NCBI GenBank assembly: GCA_002269645.1
Contig: NIVC01002829.1
Coordinates: 29,794-93,793, forward strand
Length of the DNA: 64,000 nt
From: Macrostomum lignano
Taxonomy: Eukaryota
Direction: 5' to 3'
This document shows positions 46,261 to 64,000 of the stretch, one piece after another (position 1 is the first letter of the stretch; each line of letters opens with the position of its first letter). A program made the translations under genes and the position numbers. Below the pieces are notes generated by a model. The model saw only the letters and a program-made list of their open reading frames with translations, was not told the DNA's origin and searched no databases.

Positions 46261-46300
46261 GTCCTTACCCTTTGAAAAAAAAATTAAATTTTCTCTAAAA

Positions 46301-46540
46301 ATGTTTCCAGTTGTCTCTCCAGGTTCTTATTACAAAGCGCACGAGCCTAATTACAAGAGTAAGTACCGATGCAAACTAGAATGCAGCGAGTACATGAGAA
46401 AATATTGGCCCGACGTTGATATCAATGTCCCTAATATTAATCTAGCTCTCCAAAGACACTGGTTTCATAAGTATGGAGTAACCTACGTAAAATATTACGA
46501 CAGCTACTATAACTTTGTAGAAATCATTAGACAATTGTGA
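46301..46540 (+). CDS. Polinton 79-aa Tyr-rich hypothetical protein, copy 1
   Basis: Intact in both copies with one amino-acid difference; A-tract before the ATG as in other element genes. Confidence 0.6.
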   Translation: MFPVVSPGSYYKAHEPNYKSKYRCKLECSEYMRKYWPDVDINVPNINLALQRHWFHKYGVTYVKYYDSYYNFVEIIRQL

Positions 46541-46544
46541 TTTC

Positions 46545-47408
46545 TTACATTCTTTCAATGATCAACGTCAATACAAACTCTTCCCCATTAAAATCAACGC
46601 CCATCCCATCTTCAGTCTCAAACTGTAGCACAATCTCGTGAATCTCCTTATTACTCAATACAACTCTTTTCACTGGATTTGGTTTCTCTACCACCATCTG
46701 TCCTCCAGCTACAGAGTTGGAGATGTTGTACAAAATATTAGTTCGCTTTCCCTTAAATACCCAATCAAGACTGAGATTAGTTCTGATTAGAATATTCAAA
46801 CCCTTTACAATGTCTGCTATATTGGGTGCTAAGAACAAACCGCGTACACTTTCCCGGGCCATGCTAACGGCCCCCGATGCTTGAGTGACAGTCCGCGCTG
46901 TGGATTCTGCCTTATAAACTTTCTTCACGAATCCCAATTCCCTATACCAAGTGTCATCTTTAAACTCAACCTCCGCATCTTTGTGAACTTGCATGACCAC
47001 TCTCATTACAGTGAGATCATAGGTTAGTTTAACAGGGAACAGTTTCTTCTCTGGCTTACTCATATCAGGTGTCTCAAAATGGCCTCTTTTAGTAAAGACG
47101 TTTTCTAGAAAGTAATTGTAGGTATCCACACTTTGCGTGCTCACAGGGAATACCACAGGTTCTGCTGCTGCACCTTTCCATTTGTAATAAAACTTATTAT
47201 TTGCTGCCGTCACATTGGGAACGTTTGACCAACCAGTGAAGTCGTTAAGATAGACATGGTAATTAGCACCTGGATCCAGGCTAATCGCCTGCTCTAATTT
47301 TTGAACAAATATCCCGTTTGAGTCATTAATCCGCCCAGTTATTGTAATAGGAATGCTCTCCTTGGAGTGCGAAATAATATTGTTTAGTCTTTCGGCTATA
47401 GCTTCCAT
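46545..47408 (-). CDS. Polinton minor capsid (penton) protein, copy 1, 287 aa
   Basis: Size, beta-rich pattern, PN...NNKFYY and C-terminal I.LQFETEDG..VDFNGE...L.I typical of Polinton pentons; adjacent to the major capsid gene. Confidence 0.75.
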   Translation of the reverse strand: MEAIAERLNNIISHSKESIPITITGRINDSNGIFVQKLEQAISLDPGANYHVYLNDFTGWSNVPNVTAANNKFYYKWKGAAAEPVVFPVSTQSVDTYNYFLENVFTKRGHFETPDMSKPEKKLFPVKLTYDLTVMRVVMQVHKDAEVEFKDDTWYRELGFVKKVYKAESTARTVTQASGAVSMARESVRGLFLAPNIADIVKGLNILIRTNLSLDWVFKGKRTNILYNISNSVAGGQMVVEKPNPVKRVVLSNKEIHEIVLQFETEDGMGVDFNGEEFVLTLIIERM

Positions 47409-47432
47409 TTTTTTCACCCACAAAAAAAATAT

Positions 47433-48719
47433 TTAAACTTTACTGGATGAATTGTTGATCATGTTAAGCTTCACCTTCCTCTCAAATGCATAGATAATGT
47501 ACAGGTCCACGGGTGTTGCGACAGTCCTCTCAATGTTAGTCACGATATTCACAGGGCTGTTATCAGTAGGCATTTGTCTGGCAGACACATCAGCGCCAAA
47601 CATCGGATATAGAGTTCCATATTGAAGAGCAGTGATAGCAATTCCATTGTTCTCTTTCACAGCCAAGTCGACCAACTCGCTATAAAATTTGCTAATCTTG
47701 TTCTGACTGAAATCTCCATTTTGTGGCAGTGCAGGGTAAAGATTATCACTGATTTCATGCTGAATGGACCGCACGTCTCCATGCATGTAGCGTATAATGC
47801 TATTTGGGTTTCTCATATTAATAATGATATACCTTGGATTGCTGCATGATCCCTCTTTAATGCAGATGTTTGTTCTAGTTTCGTTTCGCTCATCTCGACA
47901 CATGTAGGCCGTGTATGCAACATCAATGTCCTTCTCTATTGCCTTAAGATAATCAGCTTTTAGTGCAGTCTTTGGCTCAATGACTTCCAAATACAGCTCG
48001 ATTCCGGTTAGCTTCACCTCCATCCTTGTGTGGTCCGCCCCAGTCCACAACACTCTACTGCGATCATCTCTAGTCATCCTAAAGGTGTAGCTAAAGTTAC
48101 TAGTCAGTCGATTAAATGTATTACAGAATCCACTCATGAATCTCAGTGGTACAAATACATCAACAGACCGATACAGCGGGTTTTTAGCAGCATCATCAGC
48201 ACCTTGCAATGCATAGTTGTATCTCTTCTTCCTATTTTTATAACCACTGTCATTGATATCTCCTTCTTTTTCGTCTGCAATAAAACCCGCACCACTTCCC
48301 AATTGAATAAAATCAGGATTCTCGATTAAACAATGAGCGTCATAGACAATTCCAAAGTTGGCGATTCGCTCCAACTCAGTGCTCCCATTCGATACACTAA
48401 ACTCCTTGAACATGTACGCCCAAAAGTTACTGATCAGAGCCACATCCGCATCATGCTTGTCAACGTTAGCACGAGCCGCATCCGCACCACCCTTTGTCTT
48501 GAATTGAAATGTCATATGGAAGCCGCTCTTAAGACTGTGCACACTAACCAAAGACGAACATCCATTGTATGTAAATGTCAGTGTTTGACCAGGACCAAGA
48601 TTAGTTTCATTCTGATTTTCCTGACTGGGAACTCTTACCTGAGTCGCTTTGATTGTGCTATTATCACTCAAAATAGGCTTGTTAATCTTGTAGAAAACTG
48701 GTGTCAGTGGGTCGTTCAT
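47433..48719 (-). CDS. Polinton major capsid protein (double jelly roll), copy 1, 428 aa
   Basis: ELERI.NFG, VPL..MSGFC..F, PRYIII, YPMF..DVS resemble Polinton capsid motifs; size and context fit. Confidence 0.78.
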   Translation of the reverse strand: MNDPLTPVFYKINKPILSDNSTIKATQVRVPSQENQNETNLGPGQTLTFTYNGCSSLVSVHSLKSGFHMTFQFKTKGGADAARANVDKHDADVALISNFWAYMFKEFSVSNGSTELERIANFGIVYDAHCLIENPDFIQLGSGAGFIADEKEGDINDSGYKNRKKRYNYALQGADDAAKNPLYRSVDVFVPLRFMSGFCNTFNRLTSNFSYTFRMTRDDRSRVLWTGADHTRMEVKLTGIELYLEVIEPKTALKADYLKAIEKDIDVAYTAYMCRDERNETRTNICIKEGSCSNPRYIIINMRNPNSIIRYMHGDVRSIQHEISDNLYPALPQNGDFSQNKISKFYSELVDLAVKENNGIAITALQYGTLYPMFGADVSARQMPTDNSPVNIVTNIERTVATPVDLYIIYAFERKVKLNMINNSSSKV

Positions 48720-48749
48720 TTTTTAACTAAAAATAAAATAAAATAAGAA

Positions 48750-49979
48750 ATGAAGCGAAAAAGTACACAGCAGATATCTGAATTGGAGAAGCTAGCACAA
48801 GCAGAGAAACGAGTTACCGGGCTAATAAATAAGGAGCAACAATCCTACAATGAGTTTGTCCAAGCAGCCACAGAGTTTCATAAGCCCGGGTATGGAGAAG
48901 CTAAGAAAAATATTGATCAGGTCAAAGAAACTATCGACGACATACAGGAAACCCAGGTGCAAAAGGCCTTGGGCAAAATTCCAGAAGCACCACAGATACA
49001 GCCGCAACCACAGACACAACCGCAACCACAACAATCACAACCACAACAATCACAACCACAACAACAGCAACTAAAAGTGACAGATAACATTTTTGGACCA
49101 GTAGAGCGTGTAGAACATGATGGGAAATATGTATTTGGAATAAGTGTGTGGAGAAGAAACATTTATAATGAACCAGTGGAATATTATATCGACATAAATA
49201 AGAAACATATTTCTGTTGTTAAAGGCTCGGAAACTAAGAGCATTCCTTTCACAGAAACCTTACTGAATTTTATGACCAAGAACCAAGAGAGAATCTCGGA
49301 CAAACAGCTAAATAACTATAGAGATCTAGTGACTTTTGCTCTTGCTAGAGATATAGAAATACTAAAGGCCCCAGAAGTCCTGAGACTTATGTATGATAAC
49401 GGTGTCAACCTGACTAGATTCAAAAAGTACAAACACTTTAAACAATGGTTCGGTTTGCCAGATCAGGCGGAAGTCATAAAATATCTAGAACAACCACAAC
49501 AACAACAACGACCGCCACAACAGCAGCAACATTTCACAGAAGAACAAGTACTCAGTCAACTCGAGCAGTTAGACCCTTTGAAAGTAGCTGAATATAAGAA
49601 ACAAAACCCAACAGACTGGCAACGCTTAGAACAACACTCTCCAGATCGAATGAACAGAATCAAGCAAAGAGTTTTCACACCTCAACAAAGACAGGCACCA
49701 CATGACAGTTCCATCTCTGAAAGTGAGCAGTCTTTTGCATCACCTCCCCAGCAGCTACAAGCCCAACCAACTCCACAACCCCAAGACCAACCGCCCTCAA
49801 CTGGAAAAGGAATTTCTGAAATCTACAAGCGAGTAGCGGTTCTTCTAGGAGCGGCAAAGACCGGAATGAAAGATGAAAATAGAAAAGAATTTGTCAACAT
49901 CCTCAATAAAATGCTTGAGAGAAAATACATCGATAAGAGGGCGAGAGAGCTTCTGCTTTCGCGGTTCAACAAAAAATAA
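48750..49979 (+). CDS. Polinton 409-aa Gln-rich protein with a TGKG motif and C-terminal helical domain, copy 1
   Basis: Intact ORF. C-terminal RVAVLLGA.KTG..EF.NI...ML..I resembles a recurrent Polinton ORF. Confidence 0.7.
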   Translation: MKRKSTQQISELEKLAQAEKRVTGLINKEQQSYNEFVQAATEFHKPGYGEAKKNIDQVKETIDDIQETQVQKALGKIPEAPQIQPQPQTQPQPQQSQPQQSQPQQQQLKVTDNIFGPVERVEHDGKYVFGISVWRRNIYNEPVEYYIDINKKHISVVKGSETKSIPFTETLLNFMTKNQERISDKQLNNYRDLVTFALARDIEILKAPEVLRLMYDNGVNLTRFKKYKHFKQWFGLPDQAEVIKYLEQPQQQQRPPQQQQHFTEEQVLSQLEQLDPLKVAEYKKQNPTDWQRLEQHSPDRMNRIKQRVFTPQQRQAPHDSSISESEQSFASPPQQLQAQPTPQPQDQPPSTGKGISEIYKRVAVLLGAAKTGMKDENRKEFVNILNKMLERKYIDKRARELLLSRFNKK

Positions 49980-49996
49980 ATATCTATTTAAAAAAG

Positions 49997-50386
49997 ATGC
50001 CAATTATTTTCGAAAAAGACATTGACAAATACTATGACAAAGAGGAACTTAATCTTATTAAACGCGGATCTGGACTTTTCCCTGCAGGCCACTATCCAAG
50101 AAAAGAACGCTCTGGGAATGGCCTTGCTGATTTGATCGCTCAAGGGGCCAAGATTTTTAAGGTCATTGGAGAGAACAAAGAGAACATCAAGAACGTTGCC
50201 GAAGCGGCTGGCAGTGTAGCCACAGCAGCCAAAAAGATAAAGGATACTGTAACACCTAAACAAGAGATTCAGCCTCCACTGGCCCCGCTGGCTCCATTGG
50301 CCCCAAATCCAGACAGTGTGGACCCTGCAGTCTATGAGAAGATGAGGGCTAGCATTAAAAAAGGAAGTGGTTTCAAATTTGACTAA
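49997..50386 (+). CDS. Polinton 129-aa GxG-motif protein with an amphipathic helix (candidate core or membrane-lytic precursor), copy 1
   Basis: KRGSG, SGNG and KKGSG motifs; helix GLADLIAQGAKIFKVIG. Confidence 0.68.
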   Translation: MPIIFEKDIDKYYDKEELNLIKRGSGLFPAGHYPRKERSGNGLADLIAQGAKIFKVIGENKENIKNVAEAAGSVATAAKKIKDTVTPKQEIQPPLAPLAPLAPNPDSVDPAVYEKMRASIKKGSGFKFD

Positions 50387-50414
50387 AGGGTACTTTCCGA
50401 GGGTACAAGACTAG

Positions 50415-50560
50415 TCCCGAAATGACACATCTAAGTCTCAAAATGACACATCTAAGTCCCGAAATGACACATCTAAGTCCCGAAATGACACAATTAAGTA
50501 CCAAAATGACACATCTAAGTCCCAAAATGACACATCTAAGTCCCGAAATGACACATCTAC
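50415..50560. repeat. 21-bp internal minisatellite (AAATGACACATCTAAGTCCCG)n upstream of the ATPase; shorter version at ~57965-58070
   Basis: Direct reading. Confidence 0.88.
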
Positions 50561-50598
50561 ATTATTTATTATTTAAATTTTTTTTCATCATAGAAAAA

Positions 50599-51399
50599 AT
50601 GGACTTTTCAAACGACTTCAATCCTCACTGGACACGTAATCAGATTAAGTTTTCTCATCATGAGTCAATCCCAAGTCACTTCAGATGCATTGTTGTTGGT
50701 TCATCAGGTTCAGGTAAAACATTCAGAGTCTTTAACATGCTTCTTAGACCTGGCTTTATCGACTATGACACTCTGCACATCTACTCTCCCACACTGTATC
50801 AAGATGAGTATAAAATGCTGATTTCTGGATTGCAAAACAAACTGAACAAAGAGGACATTATTCAATGTTTTAATAACCAACAAATCCTTCCCAGCAACCC
50901 AGAAATTGTAGCTGCTGAATATGCAAAGCACCTCAAAGACAATGAAAAATGGCAGAACATTAAAGTGTTCACCTATGGAGATCCACAGGCTGATCCAAAG
51001 ACCAAACTTCTACCCCAACCAGATGAGCTAGAAAAGGGGAGAAAGCATTTGATCGTCTTTGATGATTGTATGACAGGCCCACAGAAGCAGATAGAAAACT
51101 ATTTTACAAGAGGGCGACATAACAATTGTAATGTAATTTACATTGCACAGAACTGGTTCGAGCTCCCGAACAAAACAATTCGTGGGAACTGCAATCTGAT
51201 TCTCCTGTTTCCAACCATTCCACAGGACAGGTTAAAAAGATTTTACAATGAGGTCATTGCGCCTGCCTATTTCATAAATCCAACAAAAAACTCAAGCAGA
51301 AAGATTTCACAAGAGGAATTCGTTAATCTTTGCTATGACAAGTGGAATCAGCCTTACCAGTTTGTGATTATCAGCAAAGAAAAAAGAACTGTAATTTAA
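50599..51399 (+). CDS. A32-like (FtsK-HerA) genome packaging ATPase, copy 1, 266 aa
   Basis: Walker A GSSGSGKT, Walker B LIVFDD, FTRGRHNNCNVIYIAQ. Likely true ATG 50599 (MDFSND). Confidence 0.93.
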   Translation: MDFSNDFNPHWTRNQIKFSHHESIPSHFRCIVVGSSGSGKTFRVFNMLLRPGFIDYDTLHIYSPTLYQDEYKMLISGLQNKLNKEDIIQCFNNQQILPSNPEIVAAEYAKHLKDNEKWQNIKVFTYGDPQADPKTKLLPQPDELEKGRKHLIVFDDCMTGPQKQIENYFTRGRHNNCNVIYIAQNWFELPNKTIRGNCNLILLFPTIPQDRLKRFYNEVIAPAYFINPTKNSSRKISQEEFVNLCYDKWNQPYQFVIISKEKRTVI

Positions 51400-51415
51400 A
51401 ATTTGCTATTAAAAG

Positions 51416-52234
51416 ATGTCGATAAACTTTGCAGGTGAATCCATTTCTGGCAACAGCGCTCTTACATCAGCTCAGATATCCATCCTTGACAGGCGATATA
51501 TCAACAGCGACGAAAAGATCCCAGAGATCAAACTGAATAAAAACAGACTGAAAGCCCTAGAGCGCTCTATGCACCAGTTGCAAATAAACATGGAAGATCT
51601 CAGGCTTAAAGTAGCCAGGCAGAAGTTTGAAAGTGATAAGCTTTATATGCCGTTGTTAAACGAAACTAATGAACTTAGGTCAGAAATAACTTCGATAGTC
51701 TCGCTAATCAACGGCTTGAGATCATCAGTTAATCTTCTGGGAAATTCCACTGATAGACGGATGCGTATTCTCGAAGGAGGAGTTTTCGCAAACACAGCTA
51801 AAGTAAATAATTTAGAAGAGTTCATGAACCAGTCAACAGCGTTGCATGATAGAATTAAAGAAAACGTCGCAACCAACACAGTTAAAGTCAATAATTTAGA
51901 AGAGTTCATGACTCAGTCAACATCGTTGCATGATCGAATCAAAGAAAGACTTGAAGCATTAAAGAGAAAGGATGTATCACACAGTAGCTATCTAAACGGA
52001 ATGTATAGCTCCTGGGGTAAAATACTAAGGAGGCTTGATCGTCTGGAGAGAACACTCAATCTTCGTGACATTGCTATTGATGAAGCAGAATCTGCTGCTC
52101 GTCCGGTCATGTCTACAGATCGAGTAGAAGGAGCTCTGGACCCCGCCGGAGTAATCCGGCACGCTCTCAAACGTCAGCCGCCCAGCCGCTGCCTGCTGGA
52201 CTCGCGATCCTCCGGCGTCACGAGAGCCGCCTAG
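51416..52234 (+). CDS. Coiled-coil protein (candidate fibre/spike), copy 1, 272 aa
   Basis: Heptad pattern with an exact 28-aa (84-nt) tandem repeat at 51791 and 51875. Confidence 0.65.
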   Translation: MSINFAGESISGNSALTSAQISILDRRYINSDEKIPEIKLNKNRLKALERSMHQLQINMEDLRLKVARQKFESDKLYMPLLNETNELRSEITSIVSLINGLRSSVNLLGNSTDRRMRILEGGVFANTAKVNNLEEFMNQSTALHDRIKENVATNTVKVNNLEEFMTQSTSLHDRIKERLEALKRKDVSHSSYLNGMYSSWGKILRRLDRLERTLNLRDIAIDEAESAARPVMSTDRVEGALDPAGVIRHALKRQPPSRCLLDSRSSGVTRAA

Positions 52235-52401
52235 ACAACCGGCGGTGCAGATGGAATTATCAAAAAGAAAACAGATCTTTCAACCGGATAGTTTTATAAT
52301 TTTTTTATTATTTTTTCTAGAGAAAAAAAATGGCCTAACAAAATTCTCTATACGATCAGTCTCAATACGTTGAACCTAAAATACCGACAGCACCAAACTC
52401 A

Positions 52402-53043
52402 ATGGCACCGAATTCGAACACACAAAACCTGGCACCGAATCTGAATGCACCTCAATATTCAGACCGACTTTACCCCGTCATTACTTGTAACTCTCAGCAG
52501 TTTCGACTGGTGGAGATTCAAAAAATGCGAGATGATCTTGAAAAAAATATTTTCCACAACACAAAGAAAATTAAACGCTATGAAAGCCACTGTAAATTTT
52601 TCGACTACAGCAATATGATTCTAGGATCTGTGTCTGTTCTATCTGGATCTGCTGCAGCTGTCTCAACGTTGCCAGTCATCACAGCCCCAATCGCAATCCC
52701 GCTCGGCTCTGTGGGTGCTGCATGTGGACTTATTTCAGCAATTACTGGAGCAGTAGCGCGAAACAGGCGAAAAAAACTAAAGCAGCTACAGGAGAAGCAA
52801 GTAAAAGAGAAAGGGGTGCACACTTCAATCATAGGGTACATTTCAAGGGCAATCGATGATAAGTTCATTTCAGAGGATGAGTTCAAAACCATTCAGGATC
52901 TTTATGAACAATCAATTCGAATGAACTTGAACATGGTCGGTACTGATGACATGAGTCAGCTGAGAAATGAACTCGAGAAAGTTCTTCAACATTATGTGGA
53001 AAGAAGGACAACGAGAAGGACAACGAGAAATACACCACAATGA
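52402..53043 (+). CDS. Two-TM helical-hairpin protein, copy 1; the upstream in-frame ATG 52330 is blocked by TAA at codon 3
   Basis: Hydrophobic hairpin ILGSVSVLSGSAAAVS..IAIPLGSVGAACGLISAITGAV, then basic RNRRKKLK. Near-identical to 59775..60434 except at the N-terminus. Confidence 0.72.
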   Translation: MAPNSNTQNLAPNLNAPQYSDRLYPVITCNSQQFRLVEIQKMRDDLEKNIFHNTKKIKRYESHCKFFDYSNMILGSVSVLSGSAAAVSTLPVITAPIAIPLGSVGAACGLISAITGAVARNRRKKLKQLQEKQVKEKGVHTSIIGYISRAIDDKFISEDEFKTIQDLYEQSIRMNLNMVGTDDMSQLRNELEKVLQHYVERRTTRRTTRNTPQ

Positions 53044-53047
53044 ACCC

Positions 53048-53359
53048 CTATGAAACACAGCCAAGAATAATTTCCTTGTAGGTCTTTCGTGTTTTGGTCA
53101 TTGCATACAAAACAGTCATGCACAGCTCACCGCAAATATCACTGCTAAGACCTTGGAGAATAAAGTCTGAGCGATAAATTTTTTTATTATTTTTCCCCTT
53201 CATATAATTTCTTAGCTCTTCTGGTACTGCCGTTCCATAGCTATCGAAGTAATAACACTTGTGCTTGCGATCGGGATCAATCACCCAGCAAACCCAATGA
53301 GATCCTGGCTTATCGGTGGTGTCAAAGTTCATGATGCCGCATTCCTTTCTTAGAGGAAA
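53048..53359 (-). pseudogene. 5'-truncated adenain-like protease at the tandem junction
   Basis: Near-identical to the 3' part of 60438..60839; the first ~30 codons are replaced by terminal-region sequence. Confidence 0.88.
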
Positions 53360-53860
53360 GTAGAAGGCATGAGGGGGCTTCTGGGACAAAATTTTTCACA
53401 TCCTCCATAATCCCATTAAATCCATCCATATTATCCCCGACAGAATCAGAAAAAAAGGGGGGTCGCACTCGCTCACAAAACGTCCTCCATAATCCTATTA
53501 AATCCATCCATATTATCCCTGACAGAATCAGAGCATAACAGGTGTCCTAGTTGCTCCGAAAACTTCGAACATAATCCCATTAAATCCATCCATATTATCC
53601 CTGAATCAGAGCATAACAGGTGTCGCACTCACTTACAAAACTTCGAACATAATCCTCCTAACCTATCCTCCTTCCTCCACGACAGAATCAGAGCATAGCA
53701 GGTGTCCTACATAATCCACTGACATCCACCCATAGCATCTTCGAAACAATCAGAAAACAATCTGTATTCTTCTCCACACATTCAATTCGCAATTCGCAAC
53801 GCATCCCAAAGACTTTGAATCCCCTAACCCAGGGTCCTTACCCTTTGAAAAAAAATTAAA
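53357..53860. repeat. Internal, terminus-less copy of the left terminal region (matches from 45767 onward)
   Basis: AAAGTAGAAGGCATGAGGGGGCTTCTGGGACAAAATTTTTCAC matches 45767 ff.; the subterminal repeats are rearranged. Confidence 0.88.
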
Positions 53861-53872
53861 TTTTCTCTAAAA

Positions 53873-54112
53873 ATGTTTCCAGTTGTCTCTCCAGGTTCTT
53901 ATTACAAAGCGCACGAGCCTAATTACAAGAGTAAGTACCGATGCAAACTTGAATGCAGCGAGTACATGAGAAAATATTGGCCCGACGTTGATATCAATGT
54001 CCCTAATATTAATCTAGCTCTCCAAAGACACTGGTTTCATAAGTATGGAGTAACCTATGTAAAAGATTACGACAGCTACTATAACTTTGTAGAAATCATT
54101 AGACAATTGTGA
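53873..54112 (+). CDS. Polinton 79-aa hypothetical protein, copy 2
   Basis: Duplicate of 46301..46540. Confidence 0.6.
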   Translation: MFPVVSPGSYYKAHEPNYKSKYRCKLECSEYMRKYWPDVDINVPNINLALQRHWFHKYGVTYVKDYDSYYNFVEIIRQL

Positions 54113-54116
54113 TTTC

Positions 54117-54980
54117 TTACATTCTCTCAATGATCAACGTCAGTACAAACTCTTCACCGTTGAAATCAACACCCATCCCATCTTCAGTCTCAAACTGTAG
54201 CACAATCTCGTGAATCTCCTTATTACTCAATACAACTCTTTTCACTGGATTTGGTTTCTCTACCACCATCTGTCCTCCAGCAACAGAGTTGGAGATGTTG
54301 TACAAAATATTCGTTCGCTTTCCCTTAAATACCCAATCAAGACTGAGATTGCTTCTGATTAGAATATTCAAACCCTTTACAATGTCTGCAATATTGGGTG
54401 CTAAGAACAAACCGCTTACATTTTCCCGGGCCATTTTAACGGTCCCCGATGCTTGAGTGGCGGTCCGCGCCGCGGATTCTGCCTTATAAACTTTCTTCTC
54501 GAATCCCAGTTCCCTATACCAAGTGTCATCTTTAAACTCAACCTCCGCATCTTTGTGAACTTGCATGACCACTCTCATTACAGTGAGATCATAGGTTAGT
54601 TTAACAGGGAACAGTTTCTTCTCTGGCTTACTCATATCAGGTGTCTCAAAATGGCCTCTTTTAGTAAAGACGTTTTCTAGAAAGTAATTGTAGGTATCCA
54701 CACTTTGCGTGCTCACAGGGAATACCACAGGTTCTGCTGCTGCACCTTTCCATTTGTAATAAAACTTATTATTTGCTGCCGTCACATTGGGAACGTTTGA
54801 CCAACCAGTGAAGTCGTTAAGATAGACATGGTAATTAGCACCTGGATCCAGGCTAATCGCCTGCTCTAATTTTTGAACAAATATCCCGTTTGAGTCATTA
54901 ATCCGCCCAGTTATTGTAATAGGAATGCTCTCCTTGGAGTGCGAAATAATATTGTTTAGTCTTTCGGCTATAGCTTCCAT
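54117..54980 (-). CDS. Polinton minor capsid (penton) protein, copy 2
   Basis: Duplicate of 46545..47408; intact. Confidence 0.75.
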   Translation of the reverse strand: MEAIAERLNNIISHSKESIPITITGRINDSNGIFVQKLEQAISLDPGANYHVYLNDFTGWSNVPNVTAANNKFYYKWKGAAAEPVVFPVSTQSVDTYNYFLENVFTKRGHFETPDMSKPEKKLFPVKLTYDLTVMRVVMQVHKDAEVEFKDDTWYRELGFEKKVYKAESAARTATQASGTVKMARENVSGLFLAPNIADIVKGLNILIRSNLSLDWVFKGKRTNILYNISNSVAGGQMVVEKPNPVKRVVLSNKEIHEIVLQFETEDGMGVDFNGEEFVLTLIIERM

Positions 54981-55000
54981 TTTTTGTCCTAAAAAAATAT

Positions 55001-56287
55001 TTAAACTTTACTGGATGAATTGTTGATCATGTTAAGCTTCACCTTCCTCTCAAATGCATAGATAATGTACAGGTCCACGGGTGTTGCGACAGTCCTCTCA
55101 ATGTTAGTCACGATATTCACAGGGCTGTTATCAGTAGGCATTTGTCTGGCAGACACATCAGCGCCAAACATTGGATATAGAGTTCCATATTGAAGAGCAG
55201 TGATAGCAATTCCATTGTTCTCTTTCACAGCCAAGTCGACCAACTCGCTGTAAAATTTGCTAATCTTGTTCTGACTGAAATCTCCATTTTGTGGCAGTGC
55301 AGGGTAAAGATTATCACTGATTTCATGCTGAATGGACCGCACGTCTCCATGCATGTAGCGTATAATGCTATTTGGGTTTCTCATGTTAATAATAATATAC
55401 CTTGGATTGCTGCATGATCCCTCTTTAATGCAGATGTTTGTTCTAGTTTCGTTTCGCTCATCTCGACACATGTAGGCCGTGTATGCAACATCAATGTCCT
55501 TCTCTATTGCCTTAAGATAATCCGCTTTTAGTGCAGTCTTTGGCTCAATGACTTCCAAATACAGCTCGATTCCGGTTAGCTTCACCTCCATCCTTGTGTG
55601 GTCCGCCCCAGTCCACAACACTCTACTGCGATCATCTCTAGTCATCCTAAAGGTGTAGCTAAAGTTACTAGTCAGTCGATTAAATGTATTACAGAATCCA
55701 CTCATGAATCTCAGTGGTACAAATACATCAACAGACCGATACAGCGGGTTTTTAGCAGCATCATCTGCACCTTGCAATGCATAGTTGTATCTCTTCTTCC
55801 TCTTTTTATAGCCACTGTCATTGGTGTCTCCTTCTTTTTCATCTGCGATAAAACCCGCACCACTTCCCAACTGAATAAAATCAGGATTCTCGATCAAACA
55901 ATGAGCGTCATAGACAATTCCAAAGTTGGCGATTCGCTCCAACTCAGTGCTCCCATTCGATACACTAAACTCCTTGAACATGTACGCCCAAAAGTTACTG
56001 ATCAGAGCCACATCCGCATCATGCTTGTCAACGTTAGCACGAGCCGCATCCGCACCACCCTTTGTCTTGAATTGAAATGTCATATGGAAGCCGCTCTTAA
56101 GACTGTGCACACTAACCAAAGACGAACATCCATTGTATGTAAATGTCAGTGTTTGGCCAGGACCAAGATTAGTTTCATTCTGATTTTCCTGACTGGGAAC
56201 TCTTACCTGAGTCGCTTTGATTGTGCTATCATCACTCAAAATAGGCTTGTTAATTTTGTAGAAAACTGGTGTCAGTGGGTCGTTCAT
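55001..56287 (-). CDS. Polinton major capsid protein, copy 2
   Basis: Intact 428 aa with 3 amino-acid differences from copy 1. Confidence 0.78.
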   Translation of the reverse strand: MNDPLTPVFYKINKPILSDDSTIKATQVRVPSQENQNETNLGPGQTLTFTYNGCSSLVSVHSLKSGFHMTFQFKTKGGADAARANVDKHDADVALISNFWAYMFKEFSVSNGSTELERIANFGIVYDAHCLIENPDFIQLGSGAGFIADEKEGDTNDSGYKKRKKRYNYALQGADDAAKNPLYRSVDVFVPLRFMSGFCNTFNRLTSNFSYTFRMTRDDRSRVLWTGADHTRMEVKLTGIELYLEVIEPKTALKADYLKAIEKDIDVAYTAYMCRDERNETRTNICIKEGSCSNPRYIIINMRNPNSIIRYMHGDVRSIQHEISDNLYPALPQNGDFSQNKISKFYSELVDLAVKENNGIAITALQYGTLYPMFGADVSARQMPTDNSPVNIVTNIERTVATPVDLYIIYAFERKVKLNMINNSSSKV

Positions 56288-56317
56288 TTTTTAACTAAAA
56301 ATAAAATAAAATAAGAA

Positions 56318-57541
56318 ATGAAGCGAAAAAGTACACAGCAGATATCTGAATTGGAGAAGCTAGCACAAGCAGAGAAACGAGTTACCGGGCTAATAAATAA
56401 GGAGCAACAATCCTACAATGAGTTTGTCCAAGCAGCCACAGAGTTTCATAAGCCCGGGTATGGAGAAGCTAAGAAAAATATTGATCAGGTCAAAGAAACT
56501 ATCGACGACATACAGGAAACCCAGTGCAAAAGGCTTTGGGCAAAATTCCAGAAGCACCACAGATACAGCCGCAACCACAGGCACAACCGCAACCACAACA
56601 ATCACAACCACAACAATCACAACCACAACAGCAACTAAAAGTGACAGATAACATTTTTGGACCAGTAGAGCGTGTAGAACATGATAGGAAATATGTATTT
56701 GGAATAAGTATGTGGAGAAAAAATATTTATAATGAACCAGTGGAATATTATATCGACATAAATAAGAAACATATTTCTGTTGTCAAAGGCTCGAAACTAA
56801 GAGCATTCCTTTCACAGAAACCTTACTGACTTTTATGACCAAGAACCAAGAGAGAATCTCGGACAAACAGCTAAAGAACTATAGAGATCTAGTGACTTTT
56901 GCTCTTGCTAGAGATATAGAAATACTAAAGGCCCCAGAAGTCCTGAACTTATGTATGATAACGGTGTCAACCTGACTAATTCAAAAAGTACAAACACTTT
57001 AAACAATGGTTCGATTTGCCAGATCAGGCGGAAGTCATAAAATATCTAGAACAACAACAACAACAACAACAACAACACAACCACAACAGCAACATTCACA
57101 GAAGAACAAGTACTCAGTCAACTCGAGCAGTTAGACCCTTTGAAAGTAGCTGAATATAAGAAACAAAACCCAACAGACTGGCAACACTTAGAACAACACT
57201 CTCCAGATCGAATGAACAGAATCAAGCAAAGAGTTTTCACACCTCAACAAAGACAGGCACCACATGACAGTTCCATCTCTGAAAGTGAGCAGTCTTTTGC
57301 ATCACCTCCCCAGCAGCTACAAGCCCAACCAACTCCACAACCCCAAGACCAACCGCCCTCAACTGGAAAAGGAATTTCTGAAATCTACAAGCGAGTAGCG
57401 GTTCTTCTAGGAGCGGCAAAGACCGGAATGAAAGATGAAAATAGAAAAGAATTTGTCAACATCCTCAATAAAATGCTTGAGAGAAAATACATCGATAAGA
57501 GGGCGAGAGAGCTTCTGCTTTCGCGGTTCAACAAAAAATAA
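56318..57541 (+). pseudogene. Gln-rich TGKG protein, copy 2, frameshifted (decay or assembly errors)
   Basis: Several 1-bp deletions against copy 1 (e.g. CCAGTG vs CCAGGTG at ~56523; CTCGAAA vs CTCGGAAA at ~56792). Confidence 0.8.
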
Positions 57542-57553
57542 TTTATTTAAAAA

Positions 57554-57939
57554 ATGCCAATTATTTTTGAAAAGACATTGACAAATACTATGACAAAGAG
57601 GAACTTAATCTTATTAAACGCGGATCTGGACTTTTCCCTGCAGGCCACTATCCAAGAAAAGAACGCTCTGGGAATGGCCTTGCCGATTTGATCGCTCAGG
57701 GGCCAAGATTTTTAAGGTCATTGGAGAGAACAAAGAGAACATCAAGAACGTTGCCGAAGCGGCTGGCAGTGTAGCCACAGCAGCCAAAAAGATAAAGGAT
57801 ACTGTAACACCTAAACAAGAGATTCCCTCCACTGGCCCCGCTGGCTCCATTGGCCCCAAACCCAAACAGTGTGGACCCTGCAGTCTATGAGAAGATGAGA
57901 GCTAGCATTAAAAAAGGAAGTGGTTTCAAATTTGACTAA
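57554..57939 (+). pseudogene. 129-aa GxG protein, copy 2, frameshifted
   Basis: 1-bp deletions relative to 49997..50386. Confidence 0.78.
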
Positions 57940-58113
57940 AGGGTACTTTCCGAGGGTACAAGACTAGTCCCAAAATGACACATCTAAGTCCCGAAATGAC
58001 ACATCTAAGTCCCAAAATGACACAATTAAGTACCAAAATGACACATCTAAGTCCCGAAATGACGCATCTTCTAAATGATTTATTATTTAAATTTTTTTTC
58101 AATCATAGAAAAA

Positions 58114-58914
58114 ATGGACTTCTCAAACGACTTCAATCCTCACTGGACGCGTAATCAGATTAAGTTTTCTCATCACGAGTCAATCCCGAGTCACTTCAGA
58201 TGCATTGTTGTTGGTTCATCAGGTTCAGGTAAAACATTCAGAGTCTTTAACATGCTTCTTAGACCTGGCTTTATCGACTATGACACTCTGCACATCTACT
58301 CTCCCACACTGTATCAAGATGAGTATAAAATGCTGATTTCTGGATTGCAAAACAAACTGAACAAAGAGGACATTATTCAATGTTTTAATAACCAAATGTG
58401 CCTTCCCAGTAACCCAGAAATTGTAGCTGCCGAATATGCAAAGCACCTCAAAGACAATGAAAAATGGCAGAACATTAAAGTGTTCACCTATGGAGATCCA
58501 CAGGCTGATCCAAAGACCAAACTTCTACCCCAACCAGATGAGCTAGAAAAGGGGAGAAAGCATTTGATCGTCTTTGATGATTGTATGACAGGCCCACAGA
58601 AGCAGATAGAAAACTATTTTACAAGAGGGCGACATAACAATTGTAATGTAATTTACATTGCACAGAACTGGTTCGAGCTCCCGAACAAAACAATTCGTGG
58701 GAACTGCAATCTGATTCTCCTGTTTCCAACCATTCCACAGGACAGGTTAAAAAGATTTTACAATGAGGTCATTGCGCCTGCCTATTTCATAAATCCAACA
58801 AAAAACTCAAGCAGAAAGATTTCACAAGAGGAATTCGTTAATCTTTGCTATGACAAGTGGAATCAGCCTTACCAGTTTGTGATTATCAGCAAAGAAAAAA
58901 GAACTGTAATTTAA
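58114..58914 (+). CDS. A32-like packaging ATPase, copy 2, intact
   Basis: Same Walker A/B and RGRH motifs; 266 aa. Confidence 0.93.
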   Translation: MDFSNDFNPHWTRNQIKFSHHESIPSHFRCIVVGSSGSGKTFRVFNMLLRPGFIDYDTLHIYSPTLYQDEYKMLISGLQNKLNKEDIIQCFNNQMCLPSNPEIVAAEYAKHLKDNEKWQNIKVFTYGDPQADPKTKLLPQPDELEKGRKHLIVFDDCMTGPQKQIENYFTRGRHNNCNVIYIAQNWFELPNKTIRGNCNLILLFPTIPQDRLKRFYNEVIAPAYFINPTKNSSRKISQEEFVNLCYDKWNQPYQFVIISKEKRTVI

Positions 58915-58930
58915 AATTTGCTATTAAAAG

Positions 58931-59667
58931 ATGTCATAAACTTTGCAGGTGAATCCATTTCTGGCAACAGCGCTCTTACATCAGCTCAGATATCCATCCT
59001 TGACAGGCGATATATCAACAGCGACGAAAGATCCCAGAGATCAAACTGAATAAAAACAGACTGAAACAATTAGAGCGCTCCATGCACCAGTTGCAAATAA
59101 ACATGGAAGATCTCAGGCTTAAAGTAGCCAGGCAGAAGTTTGAAAGTGATAAGCTTTATGTGCCGTTGTTAAACGAACTAATGAACTTAGGTCAGAAATA
59201 ACTTCGATAGTCTCGCAAATCAACGGTTTAAGAACAAATTTAGCATCGACATTAATCTTCTGAGAAACTCCATTGATAGCGGATGCGCATTCTTGAAGAG
59301 GAGTTTTCACAAACACAGCTAAAGTGAATAATTTAGAAGAGTTCATGAACCAGTCAACACGTTGCATGATAGAATTAAAGAAAACGTCGCAACCAACACA
59401 GGTAAAGTGAGGAATTTAGAAGAGTTCATGACTCAGTCAACAGCGTTGCATGATCAAATCAAAGTAAGAATTACTGCAAATAAAGTCTTTGTAGATTTAG
59501 TTTTTACCGAATGGCAGAAATCGGTGAGAAGAATCGGTCGTCTTGAACGCTTGCATAATCTCAAAAACATTGACGCTGAAGAGGCACCACAGACCACAAG
59601 GGAAACAAGTGATCCAACCGACTTGTTTGAGATCATGCGTAGAATGGAGCTCACAGATAATGAATAG
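58931..59667 (+). pseudogene. Coiled-coil fibre candidate, copy 2, frameshifted in the 5' half, with a different C-terminal domain
   Basis: ATGTCATAAAC vs ATGTCGATAAAC in copy 1. ORF 59362..59667 diverges from copy 1 after LHD.IK. Confidence 0.72.
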
Positions 59668-59774
59668 GCAGATTCAGAGACCTGTTGCCGTCACTGCAGA
59701 CGAAGCAATCAACCGTAAAACAAATCTAACCACCACCAACTAGTTGCCGATTTTTTTTAAAAAATTCCCAAAAA

Positions 59775-60434
59775 ATGGATGCTCAAAATTCTCTTTATGA
59801 TCCGAACGCTCCCACAACACCTAGTGCACCTAGTGCACCCCAATATGAGCAACAAAAACTCTACCCTGTCATTTCTTGTAACTCTCAACAGTTTCGACTA
59901 GTGGAGATTCAAAAAATGCGCGATGATCTTGAAAAAAATATTTTCCACAACACAAAGAAAATTAAGCGCTATGACAACCACTGTAAATTTTTCGACTACA
60001 GCAATATGATTCTAGGATCTGTGTCTGTTCTATCTGGATCTGCTGCAGCTGTCTCAGTGTTGCCAGCCATCACAGCCCCAATCGCAATCCCGCTCGGCTC
60101 TGTGGGTGCTGCATGTGGACTTATTTCAGCAATTACTGGAGCAGTAGCGCGAAACAGGCGAAAAAAACTAAAGCAGCTACAGGAGAAGCAAGTAAAAGAG
60201 AAAGGGGTGCACACTTCAATCATAGGGTACATTTCAAGGGCAATCGATGATAAGTTCATTTCAGAGGATGAGTTCAAAACCATTCAGGATCTTTATGAAC
60301 AATCAATTCGAATGAACTTGAACATGGTCGGTACTGATGACATGAGTCAGCTGAGAAATGAACTCGAGAAAGTTCTTCAACATTATGTGGAAAGAAGGAC
60401 AACGAGAAGGACAACGAGAAATACACCACAATGA
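59775..60434 (+). CDS. Two-TM protein with PSAP/LYP motifs (candidate ESCRT-recruiting egress protein), copy 2, intact 219 aa
   Basis: N-terminal PSAPSAP and KLYPVI, coiled coil, hydrophobic hairpin, basic stretch and a DDKFISEDEF tail. Confidence 0.75.
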   Translation: MDAQNSLYDPNAPTTPSAPSAPQYEQQKLYPVISCNSQQFRLVEIQKMRDDLEKNIFHNTKKIKRYDNHCKFFDYSNMILGSVSVLSGSAAAVSVLPAITAPIAIPLGSVGAACGLISAITGAVARNRRKKLKQLQEKQVKEKGVHTSIIGYISRAIDDKFISEDEFKTIQDLYEQSIRMNLNMVGTDDMSQLRNELEKVLQHYVERRTTRRTTRNTPQ

Positions 60435-60437
60435 ACC

Positions 60438-60839
60438 CTATGAAACACAGCCAAGAATAATTTCCTTGTAGGTCTTTCGTGTTTTGGTCATTGCATACAA
60501 AACAGTCATGCACAGCTCACCGCAAATATCACTGCTAAGACCTTGGAGGATAAAGTCTGAGCGATAAATTTTTTTATTATTTTTTCCCTTCATATAATTT
60601 CTTAGCTCTTCTGGTACTGCCGTCCCATAGCTATCGAAGTAATAACACTTGTGCTTGCGATCGGGATCAATCACCCAGCAAACCCAATGAGATCCTGGCT
60701 TATCGGTGGTGTCAAAGTTCATGATGCCGCATTCCTTTCTTAGAGGAAAATCAGGCAGAGTGTCCCTCATAAATATTCCTCTAAAGTTTGGGATTTCCAG
60801 TTCGTTAGCCAAATCTTCAAGAAAGTTATTTGTCGTCAT
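60438..60839 (-). CDS. Adenain-like cysteine maturation protease, 133 aa
   Basis: Catalytic His (GSHWV), Asp (YFDSYG) and Gln/Cys (QGLSSDICG). Likely ATG 60839. Confidence 0.92.
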   Translation of the reverse strand: MTTNNFLEDLANELEIPNFRGIFMRDTLPDFPLRKECGIMNFDTTDKPGSHWVCWVIDPDRKHKCYYFDSYGTAVPEELRNYMKGKNNKKIYRSDFILQGLSSDICGELCMTVLYAMTKTRKTYKEIILGCVS

Positions 60840-60871
60840 TTTTTTGAGGTTTATTAAACTTTCTCTCAAAC

Positions 60872-63800
60872 CTAAACCCAATATCCACCTCCTAAACCTA
60901 ACCTCCAGTGCCCGAACGGTAGACTGTTAATATTGTCATCAAAAATGAATCTCTTGTTATCTGCACCTGACAGTCCAATCTTCTTTTGCTGAATTGTGTG
61001 AATAATATGGTTTTTAGATTGTAGCTTTGAGAACTCATGTGATGTCTTTTTGTTGCAATTCAAGGCGTCTCTGTATTCAGCTTCATTAATTTCCTTCCTA
61101 ACCACACGTTTCGGAATTCCCTTTGATTTTTTATTGGGTCTGACGACTCACATTTTATAAAATAGGACTTTGCTCTCAACCCAATGAATTCAGTGATTAT
61201 GTCACCAGCAATCTCGTCCTTCATTTTCCCAATCACTTTCTTGTTAGTGGCGTCAAACACTTGATCGCCATTCTGTGTCCTGCAAGATTCATCATACTCA
61301 GACAAGTCAAACAAATCTTTTTGCTGCAGCATGTCCTGATAAATGTCTTCTGTTTGAATGTCCATAATAAAACTGTCTGTGTCAGTGTACAAGAGTTTCA
61401 TTTTATCCTTGTACTGCTGCTTCATGCCATAGAAGAACTGGTACATCAGACGTTTTGATTCGTCGAGAACAGTGACACCTGTATAGATCGGCTTGCGCAG
61501 CGTCACCTTGGTTTTGTAAAATATGATCACACCTAAGTAGCTATTAAAGATATGGAGTTCTTTGAATGTTGGCTTTGACATATTTGCCTGAATAACATCA
61601 GGCTCTGATGAGGTAACAAGTTTCAGGTTTGTTCTTTTCCGCTCATTCTCAAGAGTCTTGCCATAGACAGAGTTGTTGGCCAACTTAAAGAGGTTCTTGT
61701 CAAAGTCGTTGGTTGCTTTGGTCCTAAACTGGGTGTTCTTATCAATGTAGGGTTTCATCCACGCTTCCTCTGTAAATGTAAGAGCCCGGTGAACTTTGGT
61801 GACCCTGCAACCAAGTGAGATAAAATACTGAAGCAGTTTGTAATGGATTTTGTAACGTGTCTTGTTGTTTAGATTCTGTGTTAGTTTCTCTGTATGTTCT
61901 TTTTCTGTTCCTGACAGGTGCCAAGTTCCATTATTATCATTGGGAGTTTCGATTATTTTCGGGCACTTGATGTTCTCTGGGAAGGGTGGAAAGTCAGAGA
62001 AATAGTCGTGAAGCTCTGGTGGAATGTAAACATCAACCTCATAAATGGCAGCCAATGAAAAGTCCCATTTGAATTCTGATGAGGGTAGCCATCGAAAATC
62101 TCTAACTGGAAGATCTTGACTCATCGCCCACCCGTAGAGATTATTAGCGTCCAAGTAAGTAATGTAGTTTGAGGGCTGCTCCTTATTGTAAGATTCAATG
62201 TAGGGATTGTTTGCTTTTGCATACCTGTTAACAAAATTGAGATTCCCCCTCGCTTTGACGATTCGACAAAATTGTACATGTCAATGTCTGTAAGAAGTTC
62301 AATGTACCAATCTGGATCTTGATCCCATTTCATTTTAAGCAAAGATTCCCAGCTAGTGGCGGGCAGAGACACATAATGTGCTGGATCGAGGCCATATGCT
62401 GTGTACCAGGTGCATCTGAAGGTTTCAAACACATCAGCCAGCAGAAACACATCTGTGAAGAGGTAAAGCAGGTGATACTGGAAGAAGTTTTGACAATTAA
62501 AGTAATTATAGACATGCTTCGCGTGCTCATAGTCTTTGTCAGAGATTCCAGAGTCTGTTAGCTTTGAAAAGAACTTCTCCTGTGGTGGTAAACCTTCTTC
62601 AAATACGTGATACCCAGTAATATTTTCATAGGGGTAGAAGCCTTTGTTCTCAGGAGTTTAAATGATTCATCACTGTTGTTAATTTTACTTGCAAACATCT
62701 TTGTATATGTACATTGTTCATCTTTTAGATTCTTGCTTAGTTCGTCTAGACTGGCAGCTAGAAATTGATATGAATCCTTCAGTCTTATTTTACCTGTACC
62801 CGAATTATCCTGTTTAATATCAACACACTTAAACTTCTCCTTGTTCTCTGCGATGCAATCAAGGTGTATGTCTGGAATCATGCCGATTTTTTCAACTATT
62901 AAATGCATGTCATAGTTCTTTGCGTTGTGACAAAATATCGTTAGATCATGAATGTTCGATTTTAGCTTTAGATTACAGGTGTTATGCGCTGCACCTCTAA
63001 ATTTCCCAGTAAGTGGCAGTGGTCCCTAACGGTGGGGTTTTTAATATTAGTGCAAGTTAAATGTTTCCTGCAGATGTGGCAATGAGTTGCTGATAGGAAA
63101 TTGCTTTCATCCTCCTCAGACATACTTATTGGAACAGGTTGAAGGGTGCTAATCACTTTTTGCAACTCTAACATTCTGGCAATAAACTGCTCCACACACT
63201 GCTCTCCAAAGAAATAATTATACTCAACAAGTCCTTTTGTATTAATAAAGGCATATGCTACTGAATTGGGGATATGTTTTGAGTTTGAGTTTGTTTTGAG
63301 TTGGATGTTTTTGAGTTGGAGTTTTTTGAGTTTCTGGCACGATTGAGCATTCGAAATCAGCATATACAACAAATGGGAGCTTCTCCATCTTGTGATAGTT
63401 CTTAAACCGGAGATACTTCTCTTCAGCTGAAGGAAGAGAGCAGTTTGTCGGGTGATCCTCGCATGATAATTCATGCTCTGCTAGTTTTTCAAAGCGTTCA
63501 GGTCCACTGTAATGCTTAAGGCACAAGCGGCAGATGGCAACAGCCTCGTGATGATTATTCAACTGCTTGTGAATGAGTCTTGAAAGATCTTTAATCCAAA
63601 CATAGTGAGCCTCCTCTAGTAAATTACCAATCACTAGAAGATCCACTTCAGTCCGCCTTTTCCCCTCGGATCTAAAACGTCTTTGCTACATCTGACCGGT
63701 TGAACTTTCTCAGTTTTTCACTCCACTCAAAGACTGTGATTCTAATTTTGTTATTAAACACTTCTTCTAGCTTTGGGATCTGAGAGATGCCAAGCCTCCT

Positions 63801-64000
63801 TTGTCAAACCTGATTCCCTTCTTTTCGCATTCAATGAGATAGTAGTTAAAATAATTTTGATAATTTGAGGTTCTTTCGGGGTGGTGAGGGACACTAAAAA
63901 GTGCAGAAAGAACTGCCATAGAGCACAGCAATTGTCTTTATTTTTAACATTTATGCAAGCTTTTTTACCGGCTAGCTTATGCGGGAGCTCTATATAAGAG
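60872..64000 (-). pseudogene. Protein-primed family B DNA polymerase (pPolB), multiply frameshifted, 5' end outside the window
   Basis: SYIELP..KKACINVKN, ExoI YADFEC, RDHCH domain, CHNAKNYD, ExoIII DVFLLADVFETFR, motif A LDANNLYGWAMSQ, motif B KLANNSVYGK, motif C YTDTDS, C-terminal LPFGH; spread over six or more ORF fragments. Confidence 0.93.

Follow-up and report, generated by a model that had tools for sequence, protein, structure and literature searches.

A Polinton gene family with ESCRT late-domain motifs encodes a candidate adaptor for non-lytic particle exit

How Polintons leave the cell, and whether they are enveloped outside nematodes, is stated as open in the accessible part of 10.1101/2023.08.22.554363. 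An open reading frame (ORF) of 219 amino acids (aa) in a Polinton capsid module of the flatworm Macrostomum lignano, located on the plus strand at positions 59775 to 60434 of the stretch of 64,000 nucleotides analyzed here (the window), raises the question of whether these elements use the ESCRT machinery of their host for this step. Our literature search, with subscription journals mostly outside its range, turned up no paper describing Polinton late domains, and the papers naming both polinton and ESCRT dealt with other subjects, judging by their titles. In its accessible part, PMC8502044 names PLA2X, GasderminX, cupiennin, Adintoc, and SLATT, with 0 occurrences of ESCRT or late domain, and that of PMC8097293 gives PW, PZ, and PM as proteins of uncertain function. 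The words membrane, envelope, egress, and ESCRT have no occurrence in PMC11161782, nor does SLATT in 10.1101/2022.07.28.501842. The gene may already carry a neutral name, for example in adintovirus or preprint supplements, in Repbase, or in GenBank.

The Polinton and its capsid module

From about 45769 onward, the window consists of two Polinton arms lying about 7.5 kb apart. Their left ends, at 45769 and 53359, have the same first bases, and the second lies inside the protease gene of the first, so that the arrangement looks like the insertion of one copy into another. The main features are the following.

45769 to 53358, no strand: Polinton copy 1, left arm, with terminal repeat, penton-like gene, major capsid gene, packaging ATPase, coiled-coil ORF, late-domain gene, and part of the protease (ORFs, Pfam, repeat comparison)
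53359 to 64000, no strand: Polinton copy 2, starting inside the copy 1 protease gene and ending with the contig, several genes frameshifted (ORFs, repeat comparison)
54117 to 54980, minus strand: putative penton-like minor capsid protein, so named from size and position, with no Pfam match
55001 to 56287, minus strand: double jelly-roll major capsid protein; its near-identical twin at 47433 to 48719 matches PF21738 (E = 5e-05, below the cut-off)
58075 to 58914, plus strand: A32-like packaging ATPase; its twin at 50422 to 51399 matches Pox_A32 (E = 5e-06)
59775 to 60434, plus strand: late-domain hairpin protein (P0001), open copy, an ORF with 203 relatives at E <= 0.001
60438 to 60839, minus strand: adenovirus-type maturation protease, in part (Peptidase_C5, E = 2e-04)
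61060 to 63999, minus strand: fragments of protein-primed DNA polymerase B, with no Pfam match of their own and 83 to 98% identical to locus L112

Of the capsid module, the ATPase and the protease are above the Pfam cut-off and the capsid protein (E = 5e-05) is below it. The polymerase fragments lie within the window, while the integrase end of copy 2 falls beyond the end of the contig. The polymerase ORF of L112 matches DNA_pol_B_2 at E = 2e-10, and the sister copies in the genome give both DNA_pol_B_2 (E = 2e-10) and the integrase family rve (E = 7e-09). Terminal inverted matches of 185 to 472 bp are present in four of five sister elements and were not found in the fifth pair; in the window, left ends alone are present. 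In all five sister elements, the late-domain gene has the coiled-coil ORF on one side and the protease on the other. Across the four element stretches that were scanned, no other sense gene encodes a long hydrophobic hairpin, and none of the ORFs looked like a fusogen.

Some further features of the region deserve mention. The coiled-coil ORF just 5' of the late-domain gene encodes 272 aa and contains 84-bp repeats (51416 to 52234), a 21-bp tandem repeat array directly precedes the packaging ATPase in both copies (50392 to 50580 and 57924 to 58091), and, at two other loci, an ORF of 151 to 155 aa near the integrase (L111:3901-4353, minus strand; L112:5182-5646, plus strand) has an amphipathic end that is pX-like by the description in PMC8502044. 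Positions 1 to 44500 hold intron-bearing host genes among many simple repeats, labeled by eye as an FtsH/paraplegin-like protease, C2-domain synaptotagmin-like exons, a mitochondrial zinc-finger subunit, and leucine-rich-repeat ORFs. Contigs of four runs guessed to be RNA, which may be DNA, cover 30 of 30 bins of 53300 to 64000, the gene included; none of the listed source records is annotated as RNA.

Architecture, topology, and fold of the protein

The start of the ORF agrees with the N-terminus quoted in a preliminary description of the locus, and the motifs reported there, PSAP twice at 59820 to 59840 and LYP at about 59859, are both present. All parts of the protein listed here are on the plus strand.

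59820 to 59840, plus strand: PSAPSAP (aa 16 to 22), i.e., overlapping PSAP units at 59820 to 59831 and 59829 to 59840, of the TSG101-UEV ligand type (sequence, family enrichment)
59859 to 59873, plus strand: LYPVI (aa 29 to 33), a YPx(L/I) motif of the ALIX V-domain ligand type (sequence)
59883 to 59990, plus strand: long charged helix or coiled-coil arm (aa 37 to 72), basic beside the hairpin (AlphaFold2 model, charge profile)
59997 to 60149, plus strand: uncharged Gly/Ala/Ser-rich hairpin of 51 residues (aa 75 to 125) with a short proline-containing turn, the predicted membrane anchor (model, hydropathy)
60150 to 60173, plus strand: basic flank RNRRKKLK (aa 126 to 133), with K131 kept in 127 of 138 members (sequence, family alignment)
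60249 to 60275, plus strand: conserved D-x-x-I-S-x-x-E-F loop (aa 159 to 167), with the D in 127 and the E in 134 of 138 members (family alignment)

The last of these, which resembles the back half of an EF-hand or a TerB-type loop, could be a metal or partner site.

The AlphaFold2 model built from an alignment of 138 sequences (pLDDT 85.7, pTM 0.67) is non-helical over residues 1 to 36 and continues with a helix (37 to 94), a short turn, a second helix (101 to 159), and two more helices. The 219-aa protein has no signal peptide. None of the 138 members has an N-terminal hydrophobic stretch, basic residues exceed acidic ones on the N-terminal side of the hairpin in 118 and on its C-terminal side in 132, and the two best hydropathy windows lie at most 15 residues apart in 131. 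The turn region is constant at 15 to 16 residues, with a sequon in 1/138. From hydropathy and charge, a hairpin whose two termini face the cytosol (or nucleoplasm) is predicted, and the absence of a signal-like N-terminus, the basic flanks, and the short turn all fit the cytosolic side on which the motifs would have to lie. The coiled coil, two-transmembrane hairpin, and basic stretch of the preliminary description reappear here as the long helix, the uncharged hairpin, and RNRRKKLK, with the qualification that two membrane passages are only partly secured, given the moderate hydropathy of the second helix: of the 138 members, 23 have both 19-residue windows at a Kyte-Doolittle value of at least 1.6, and 97 have both at 1.2 or more. 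In view of the high Gly, Ala, and Ser content of the hairpin and the marginal nature of its weaker helix, a re-entrant wedge and a double crossing of the membrane are equally plausible.

Among viral models, Foldseek returned five matches at E <= 0.001, all resting on long helices and of low specificity: three invertebrate iridovirus proteins, one unnamed protein, and one SLATT-labeled protein. The best is a protein of invertebrate iridescent virus 22 (E = 9e-07), and the best SLATT-labeled giant-virus protein has E = 7e-04. Against solved structures, Foldseek gave no match at E <= 0.001, the VIA rows being generic coiled coils (Z <= 11.7), and the best match by sequence is AopB (E = 0.001). 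No Pfam family exceeded its cut-off in a scan of the hairpin domain. SLATT_5 came closest, in one member (E = 3e-06, 27 bits versus a cut-off of 29.5), SLATT_1 was matched by 4 of 138 members at E >= 0.002, and a SLATT profile was matched at E <= 0.0005 by 1 of 128 members, none above the cut-off. The weak hairpin matches (RTX, ApoL, SLATT_5, AopB) are to toxin or pore hairpins. The model places a two-helix hairpin between helical arms as in SLATT 2TM proteins, an arrangement common enough to be a weak criterion; the late-domain protein may be a distant protein of this type.

Two other identities were considered and rejected. The best match to Orbi_NS3 (PF01616) has E = 0.053 and 13.5 bits versus a cut-off of 27, in one member (P0003), and this family is not among the 25 commonest Pfam families of the 138 members. 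For GasderminX and PLA2X, no gasdermin or PLA2 match is listed, the protein is set apart from those of PMC8502044 by their description in its accessible part, and a pX-like ORF and a PLA2 ORF exist apart from the late-domain gene in elements that carry it.

The second copy and the copies across the genome

The other copy of the gene in the window, of a type with a longer N-terminus, is broken.

52330 to 53043, plus strand: second gene copy, longer N-terminal type, with a stop at codon 3 and the next ATG at 52402 (ORF, sequence)

It does contain PTAP (52384 to 52395) and LYPVI (52468 to 52482), as the preliminary description had it. However, PTAP falls outside its ORF, since the next ATG lies downstream of this motif, and the copy by itself would yield no PTAP-bearing protein. 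A genome search with P0001 gave at least 151 matches (best 150 of 617 candidates scored). We examined 89 of these loci, namely the 30 best-scoring ones, which favor the N-terminal type of the query, and 59 hand-picked lower rows; 85 have the anchor, and 68 are open from the usual start, 17 copies having been left out for a frameshift, a lost start, or an early stop. LYP together with one to four P(S/T)AP units is found in all 68 open copies, half of which (34) have the short N-terminus and half (34) the long one that is broken in the window. The P(S/T)AP units sit in a short tandem repeat, and its expansion and contraction vary their number from 1 to 4.

Counting every distinct variant over residues 29 to 175 of 65 genomic copies yields a pN/pS of 0.64, as expected from neutral decay of many copies, versus 0.22 (26 synonymous, 19 non-synonymous) for variants present in at least three copies, which suggests purifying selection while the elements were spreading, followed by decay. 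With the distant member P0117 as the query, the 150 matches listed (25 to 31% identity) fall mostly at the places found with P0001, with no sign among them of a second family in this genome.

Late-domain motifs are a trait of the family

According to our analysis, the late-domain motifs are a family trait that recurs in well over 100 distant relatives and, judging from the sequences, is under selection. Relatives were collected with phmmer against 1.84 billion representatives, and late domains were scored in the N-termini or first 70 aa. P0001 gave 203 matches at E <= 0.001, of which the best 150, mostly 22 to 35% identical, were used; upon rescoring with the core only, 124 of these 150 stay significant, 44 of them with P(S/T)AP and 102 with the YP motif in the first 70 aa. 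Among the 123 of 150 with a located anchor, P(S/T)AP occurs in 53 N-termini versus a shuffle mean of 0.7 (maximum 4), and (L/I/M/V)YPx(L/I/V) in 100 versus 0.6 (maximum 4). The bias of the query was removed by a second search with residues 19 to 200 of P0117, which is without PSAP. It gave 105 matches, 92 with an N-terminus of at least 10 aa, which are 42 to 100% identical to P0117 and so are not independent of one another. In this set, P(S/T)AP is present in 57/92 N-termini (shuffle mean 1.6, maximum 6), the YP motif in 87/92 (mean 0.4, maximum 3), and at least one of them in 90/92, whereas neither occurs in the rest of the 92 proteins. Reversed motifs were found in 0 N-termini of either set (123 and 92), and PPxY is at or near chance (5/123 versus 2.8 in shuffles; 7/92). 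The comparison with shuffled controls proposed in the preliminary description thus places the motifs far above chance.

The near-universal motif of the family is YPx(L/I), not PSAP. P(S/T)AP is absent from 70/123, 35/92, and 39/52 N-termini, the last figures being those of the metagenomic family ORFs, 52 of 60 of which were counted (P(S/T)AP in 13, YP motif in 42). By comparison, among 374 other ORFs from these loci, spurious frames included, the first 70 aa contain P(S/T)AP in 0 and the YP motif in 1. Position +3 of the YP motif is L in 80, I in 12, and V in 11 of 110 cases; the M. lignano motif is LYPVI versus the canonical LYPxL, and Ile is tolerated at the last position of YPx(L/I). A quick FastTree tree of the core, with support not assessed, implies no fewer than 9 switches in motif order for 50 proteins and no fewer than 26 gains or losses of PSAP for 116. 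Such shifts are the modular behavior of docking motifs (PMC7923801, as far as accessible).

Relatives occur in Polintons with two capsid types

Of the 78 metagenomic loci fetched, 20 are longer than 5.9 kb and were read for context, the 58 shorter ones being outside this count. With 76 of 182 ORFs scanned against Pfam, at least one Polinton hallmark was found in 19 of the 20, several of which are near-duplicates, and at least two in 14. In these metagenomic loci, the late-domain gene accompanies two capsid types that show no significant mutual similarity. The coral Oculina patagonica is the source of one named relative, and in locus L158 the late-domain gene is joined by one for a phospholipase A2 (E = 7e-12). 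Five of five scans of viral contigs returned no relatives. Three contigs of metagenome-assembled genomes (MAGs) matched in the genome collections, and the one inspected, L193, is a Polinton with integrase, ATPase, capsid, and late-domain genes that was probably mis-binned in a bacterial MAG; it gives no sign of a true bacterial family member. The ESM Atlas offers, as a lead only, unnamed clusters at 0.93 to 0.94 and one at 0.92 made up to 58% of viruses, most commonly Preplasmiviricota.

Several of these loci have further peculiarities. A fibre-like ORF lies 5' of the late-domain gene in several metagenomic loci, as at L134:8669-9943, which matches a phage tail-fibre domain. At L164:4585-8466, a member with PSAP and YPxL stands beside a 1040-aa polymerase B in an unusual gene set with no Pfam capsid or integrase match, and L170:44-1033 in a Polinton-like locus has a TATA-binding-protein-like match (E = 3e-06).

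Host receptors

Both receptors are encoded in the M. lignano genome, TSG101 (E = 7e-39) and ALIX-type V domains each at three near-identical loci. The residue on which LYPXnL binding depends in the accessible part of PMC5995805, F676 of the human protein by a count along the PDB chain, is conserved in the host ALIX. Of the six TSG101 pocket residues listed in the accessible part of 10.1101/2024.11.15.623737, Y68, I70, P139, and S143 are kept, and Y63 is replaced by H and F142 by V. The host ALIX has a PSAP of its own just behind the V domain (L103:2304-2717), which fits a functional PSAP-TSG101 link in this animal. Prediction of a complex between the host TSG101-UEV and residues 1 to 40 scored 0.00, with a tool whose performance on peptides is unproven, and was given no weight in either direction. 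On sequence grounds, we consider genuine binding of ALIX or TSG101 by these motifs highly probable.

Proposed mechanism and comparison with known systems

A widespread Polinton gene family with ESCRT late-domain motifs kept by selection is, as far as sequences can tell, real and well supported. As for its role, we favor that of an ALIX/TSG101 adaptor for the non-lytic, quasi-enveloped exit of Polinton particles, to which we assign a probability of roughly 0.6. The hairpin protein would anchor in a host membrane and recruit ALIX and TSG101 for the ESCRT-mediated pinching-off of particles. By analogy with known late domains, the main contact would be that of YPx(L/I) with the V domain of ALIX, and P(S/T)AP, variable in number (1 to 4 here) and position, would bind TSG101-UEV as an optional booster; both routes would lead to scission by ESCRT-III/VPS4 away from the cytosol. 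The long helices or the C-terminal part may hold the capsid as NS3 holds VP2, the sole link to the capsid here being the position of the gene. The plasma membrane, the multivesicular body, and the inner nuclear membrane are candidate membranes, the last if capsids assemble in the nucleus, an assumption based on adenovirus. No gene of the fusogen type turned up in the element, which makes a quasi-envelope or vesicle the expected product rather than a fusing envelope. The enrichment of the motifs, their near absence from the other ORFs, their modular shifts, their retention in 68 of 68 copies, the pN/pS of 0.22, the position in the capsid module, the topology features, the host receptors, and the NS3-like layout all support exit, although egress as the purpose, as opposed to another ESCRT-dependent job, is itself deduced as the simplest reading. 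Counting against it are the N-termini free of P(S/T)AP, the departure of LYPVI from LYPxL, the two altered TSG101 pocket positions, the moderate hydropathy of the second helix and its resemblance to toxin or pore hairpins, and the neutral decay of many copies. The broader proposition, that animal Polintons of both major capsid lineages share a conserved SLATT-like hairpin ESCRT adaptor and exit as quasi-enveloped particles or vesicle cargo, is tentative, and we put it slightly below even odds.

ESCRT-dependent quasi-envelopment of a non-enveloped capsid has precedents in hepatitis E virus, through ORF3, and in hepatitis A virus, through the recruitment of ALIX/HD-PTP, both RNA viruses with proteins unrelated to the Polinton protein. 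Retroviruses have the same motif pair, position independent and variable in copy number (PTAP and LYPXnL in HIV-1 p6; YPDL in EIAV p9), but carry it on the capsid polyprotein, whereas in Polintons the carrier is a hairpin membrane protein of its own, with the ALIX type dominating. The closest layout is that of orbivirus NS3/NS3A (bluetongue virus), a protein of about 220 aa with a PSAP among its N-terminal late domains, a coiled coil, and a basic stretch before two hydrophobic helices. Its PSAP binds TSG101, and budding of the non-enveloped capsid requires this motif (PMC6949946, accessible part). An iridovirus that buds via ALIX, TSG101, and Nedd4 (PMC4880917) provides a second analogy. The NS3 design invoked in the preliminary description holds as an analogy of layout (PSAP, coiled coil, hairpin) and not as kinship, since the fold points to viral SLATT-like two-helix proteins. 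Moreover, NS3 belongs to a dsRNA virus and not to a dsDNA element, pairs PSAP with PPxY instead of YPxL, and has a glycosylated loop between its helices where the Polinton family is without a luminal loop. The same helix-hydrophobic hairpin-helix fold is seen in the SLATT 2TM proteins of Polinton-like and giant viruses and in the uncharacterized iridovirus proteins S6DF61, A0A068QKD3, and A0A5B8RH66. SLATT labels appear on adintovirus and Polinton-like virus (PLV) maps in the accessible parts of PMC8502044 and 10.64898/2026.06.19.733378, and such proteins are interpreted in print as pores serving entry or cell suicide, with late domains unmentioned in the accessible parts; the Polinton protein has no Pfam SLATT match above the cut-off. 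In nematode Mavericks, the fusogen MFUS-1 points to membrane-wrapped Polinton particles (10.1101/2022.07.12.499685, accessible part). This gB-like entry glycoprotein is silent on how the membrane is acquired, and none was seen in the M. lignano element.

Alternative explanations

The resemblance to SLATT proteins raises the possibility of a pore or viroporin, whose motifs would sort it to endosomes or vesicles or would sequester ESCRT repair and so time lysis. The Foldseek matches to SLATT-labeled giant-virus proteins, the single near-threshold SLATT_5 member, the G/A/S-rich hairpin akin to RTX, ApoL, and AopB, and the suggestion in the accessible part of PMC6949946 that NS3 itself is perhaps a viroporin speak for it. 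We nonetheless judge it unlikely, as SLATT is significant in so few members, the structural matches have low specificity, and a near-universal ALIX-type motif is more simply a budding handle. Less probable still is a protein packaged in the virion whose hairpin breaches the endosome while its motifs engage endosomal ESCRT on entry: the gene does lie in the capsid module, and SLATT pores are hypothesized to serve endosomal escape where lipases are absent (PMC12220804, accessible part), but the PLA2 gene of L158 and the pX-like amphipathic protein of the M. lignano element indicate that entry tools exist separately, and the motifs of an incoming luminal protein would be on the wrong side for cytosolic ESCRT.

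An adaptor that feeds host membrane proteins into ESCRT degradation, or makes capsid-free vesicles, with no role in particle release, appears to us just as improbable as the entry protein. ESCRT also sorts cargo and makes exosomes (PMC7923801, accessible part), and it is gene position that connects the late-domain protein with the capsid; against this stand the lack of a luminal target-recognizing domain, given the short turn with its near absence of sequons, and the retention of the gene with two highly divergent capsid types, which suggests a core life-cycle role and not a host-specific one. Chance motifs in a proline-rich, repeat-prone N-terminus, a notion prompted by the tandem-repeat nature of the PSAP units in M. 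lignano, can be set aside as extremely improbable, for shuffles reach at most 6/92 for PSAP and 3/92 for YP versus the 57 and 87 observed, and reversed motifs are not found at all.

Implications

For the question of how Polintons exit, the late-domain family provides a named gene and two four-residue motifs. If adaptor-driven exit is true, it would suggest a reason why Polinton particles are hard to find, with vesicle fractions as the place to look, and late-domain budding would extend to a large group of small dsDNA viruses. Two-helix "SLATT" genes on the maps of such viruses would acquire a rival function. ESCRT-adaptor exit may be common to invertebrate iridoviruses as well. It would let these endogenous viruses, which have never been isolated, reach germ cells and other hosts without lysis.
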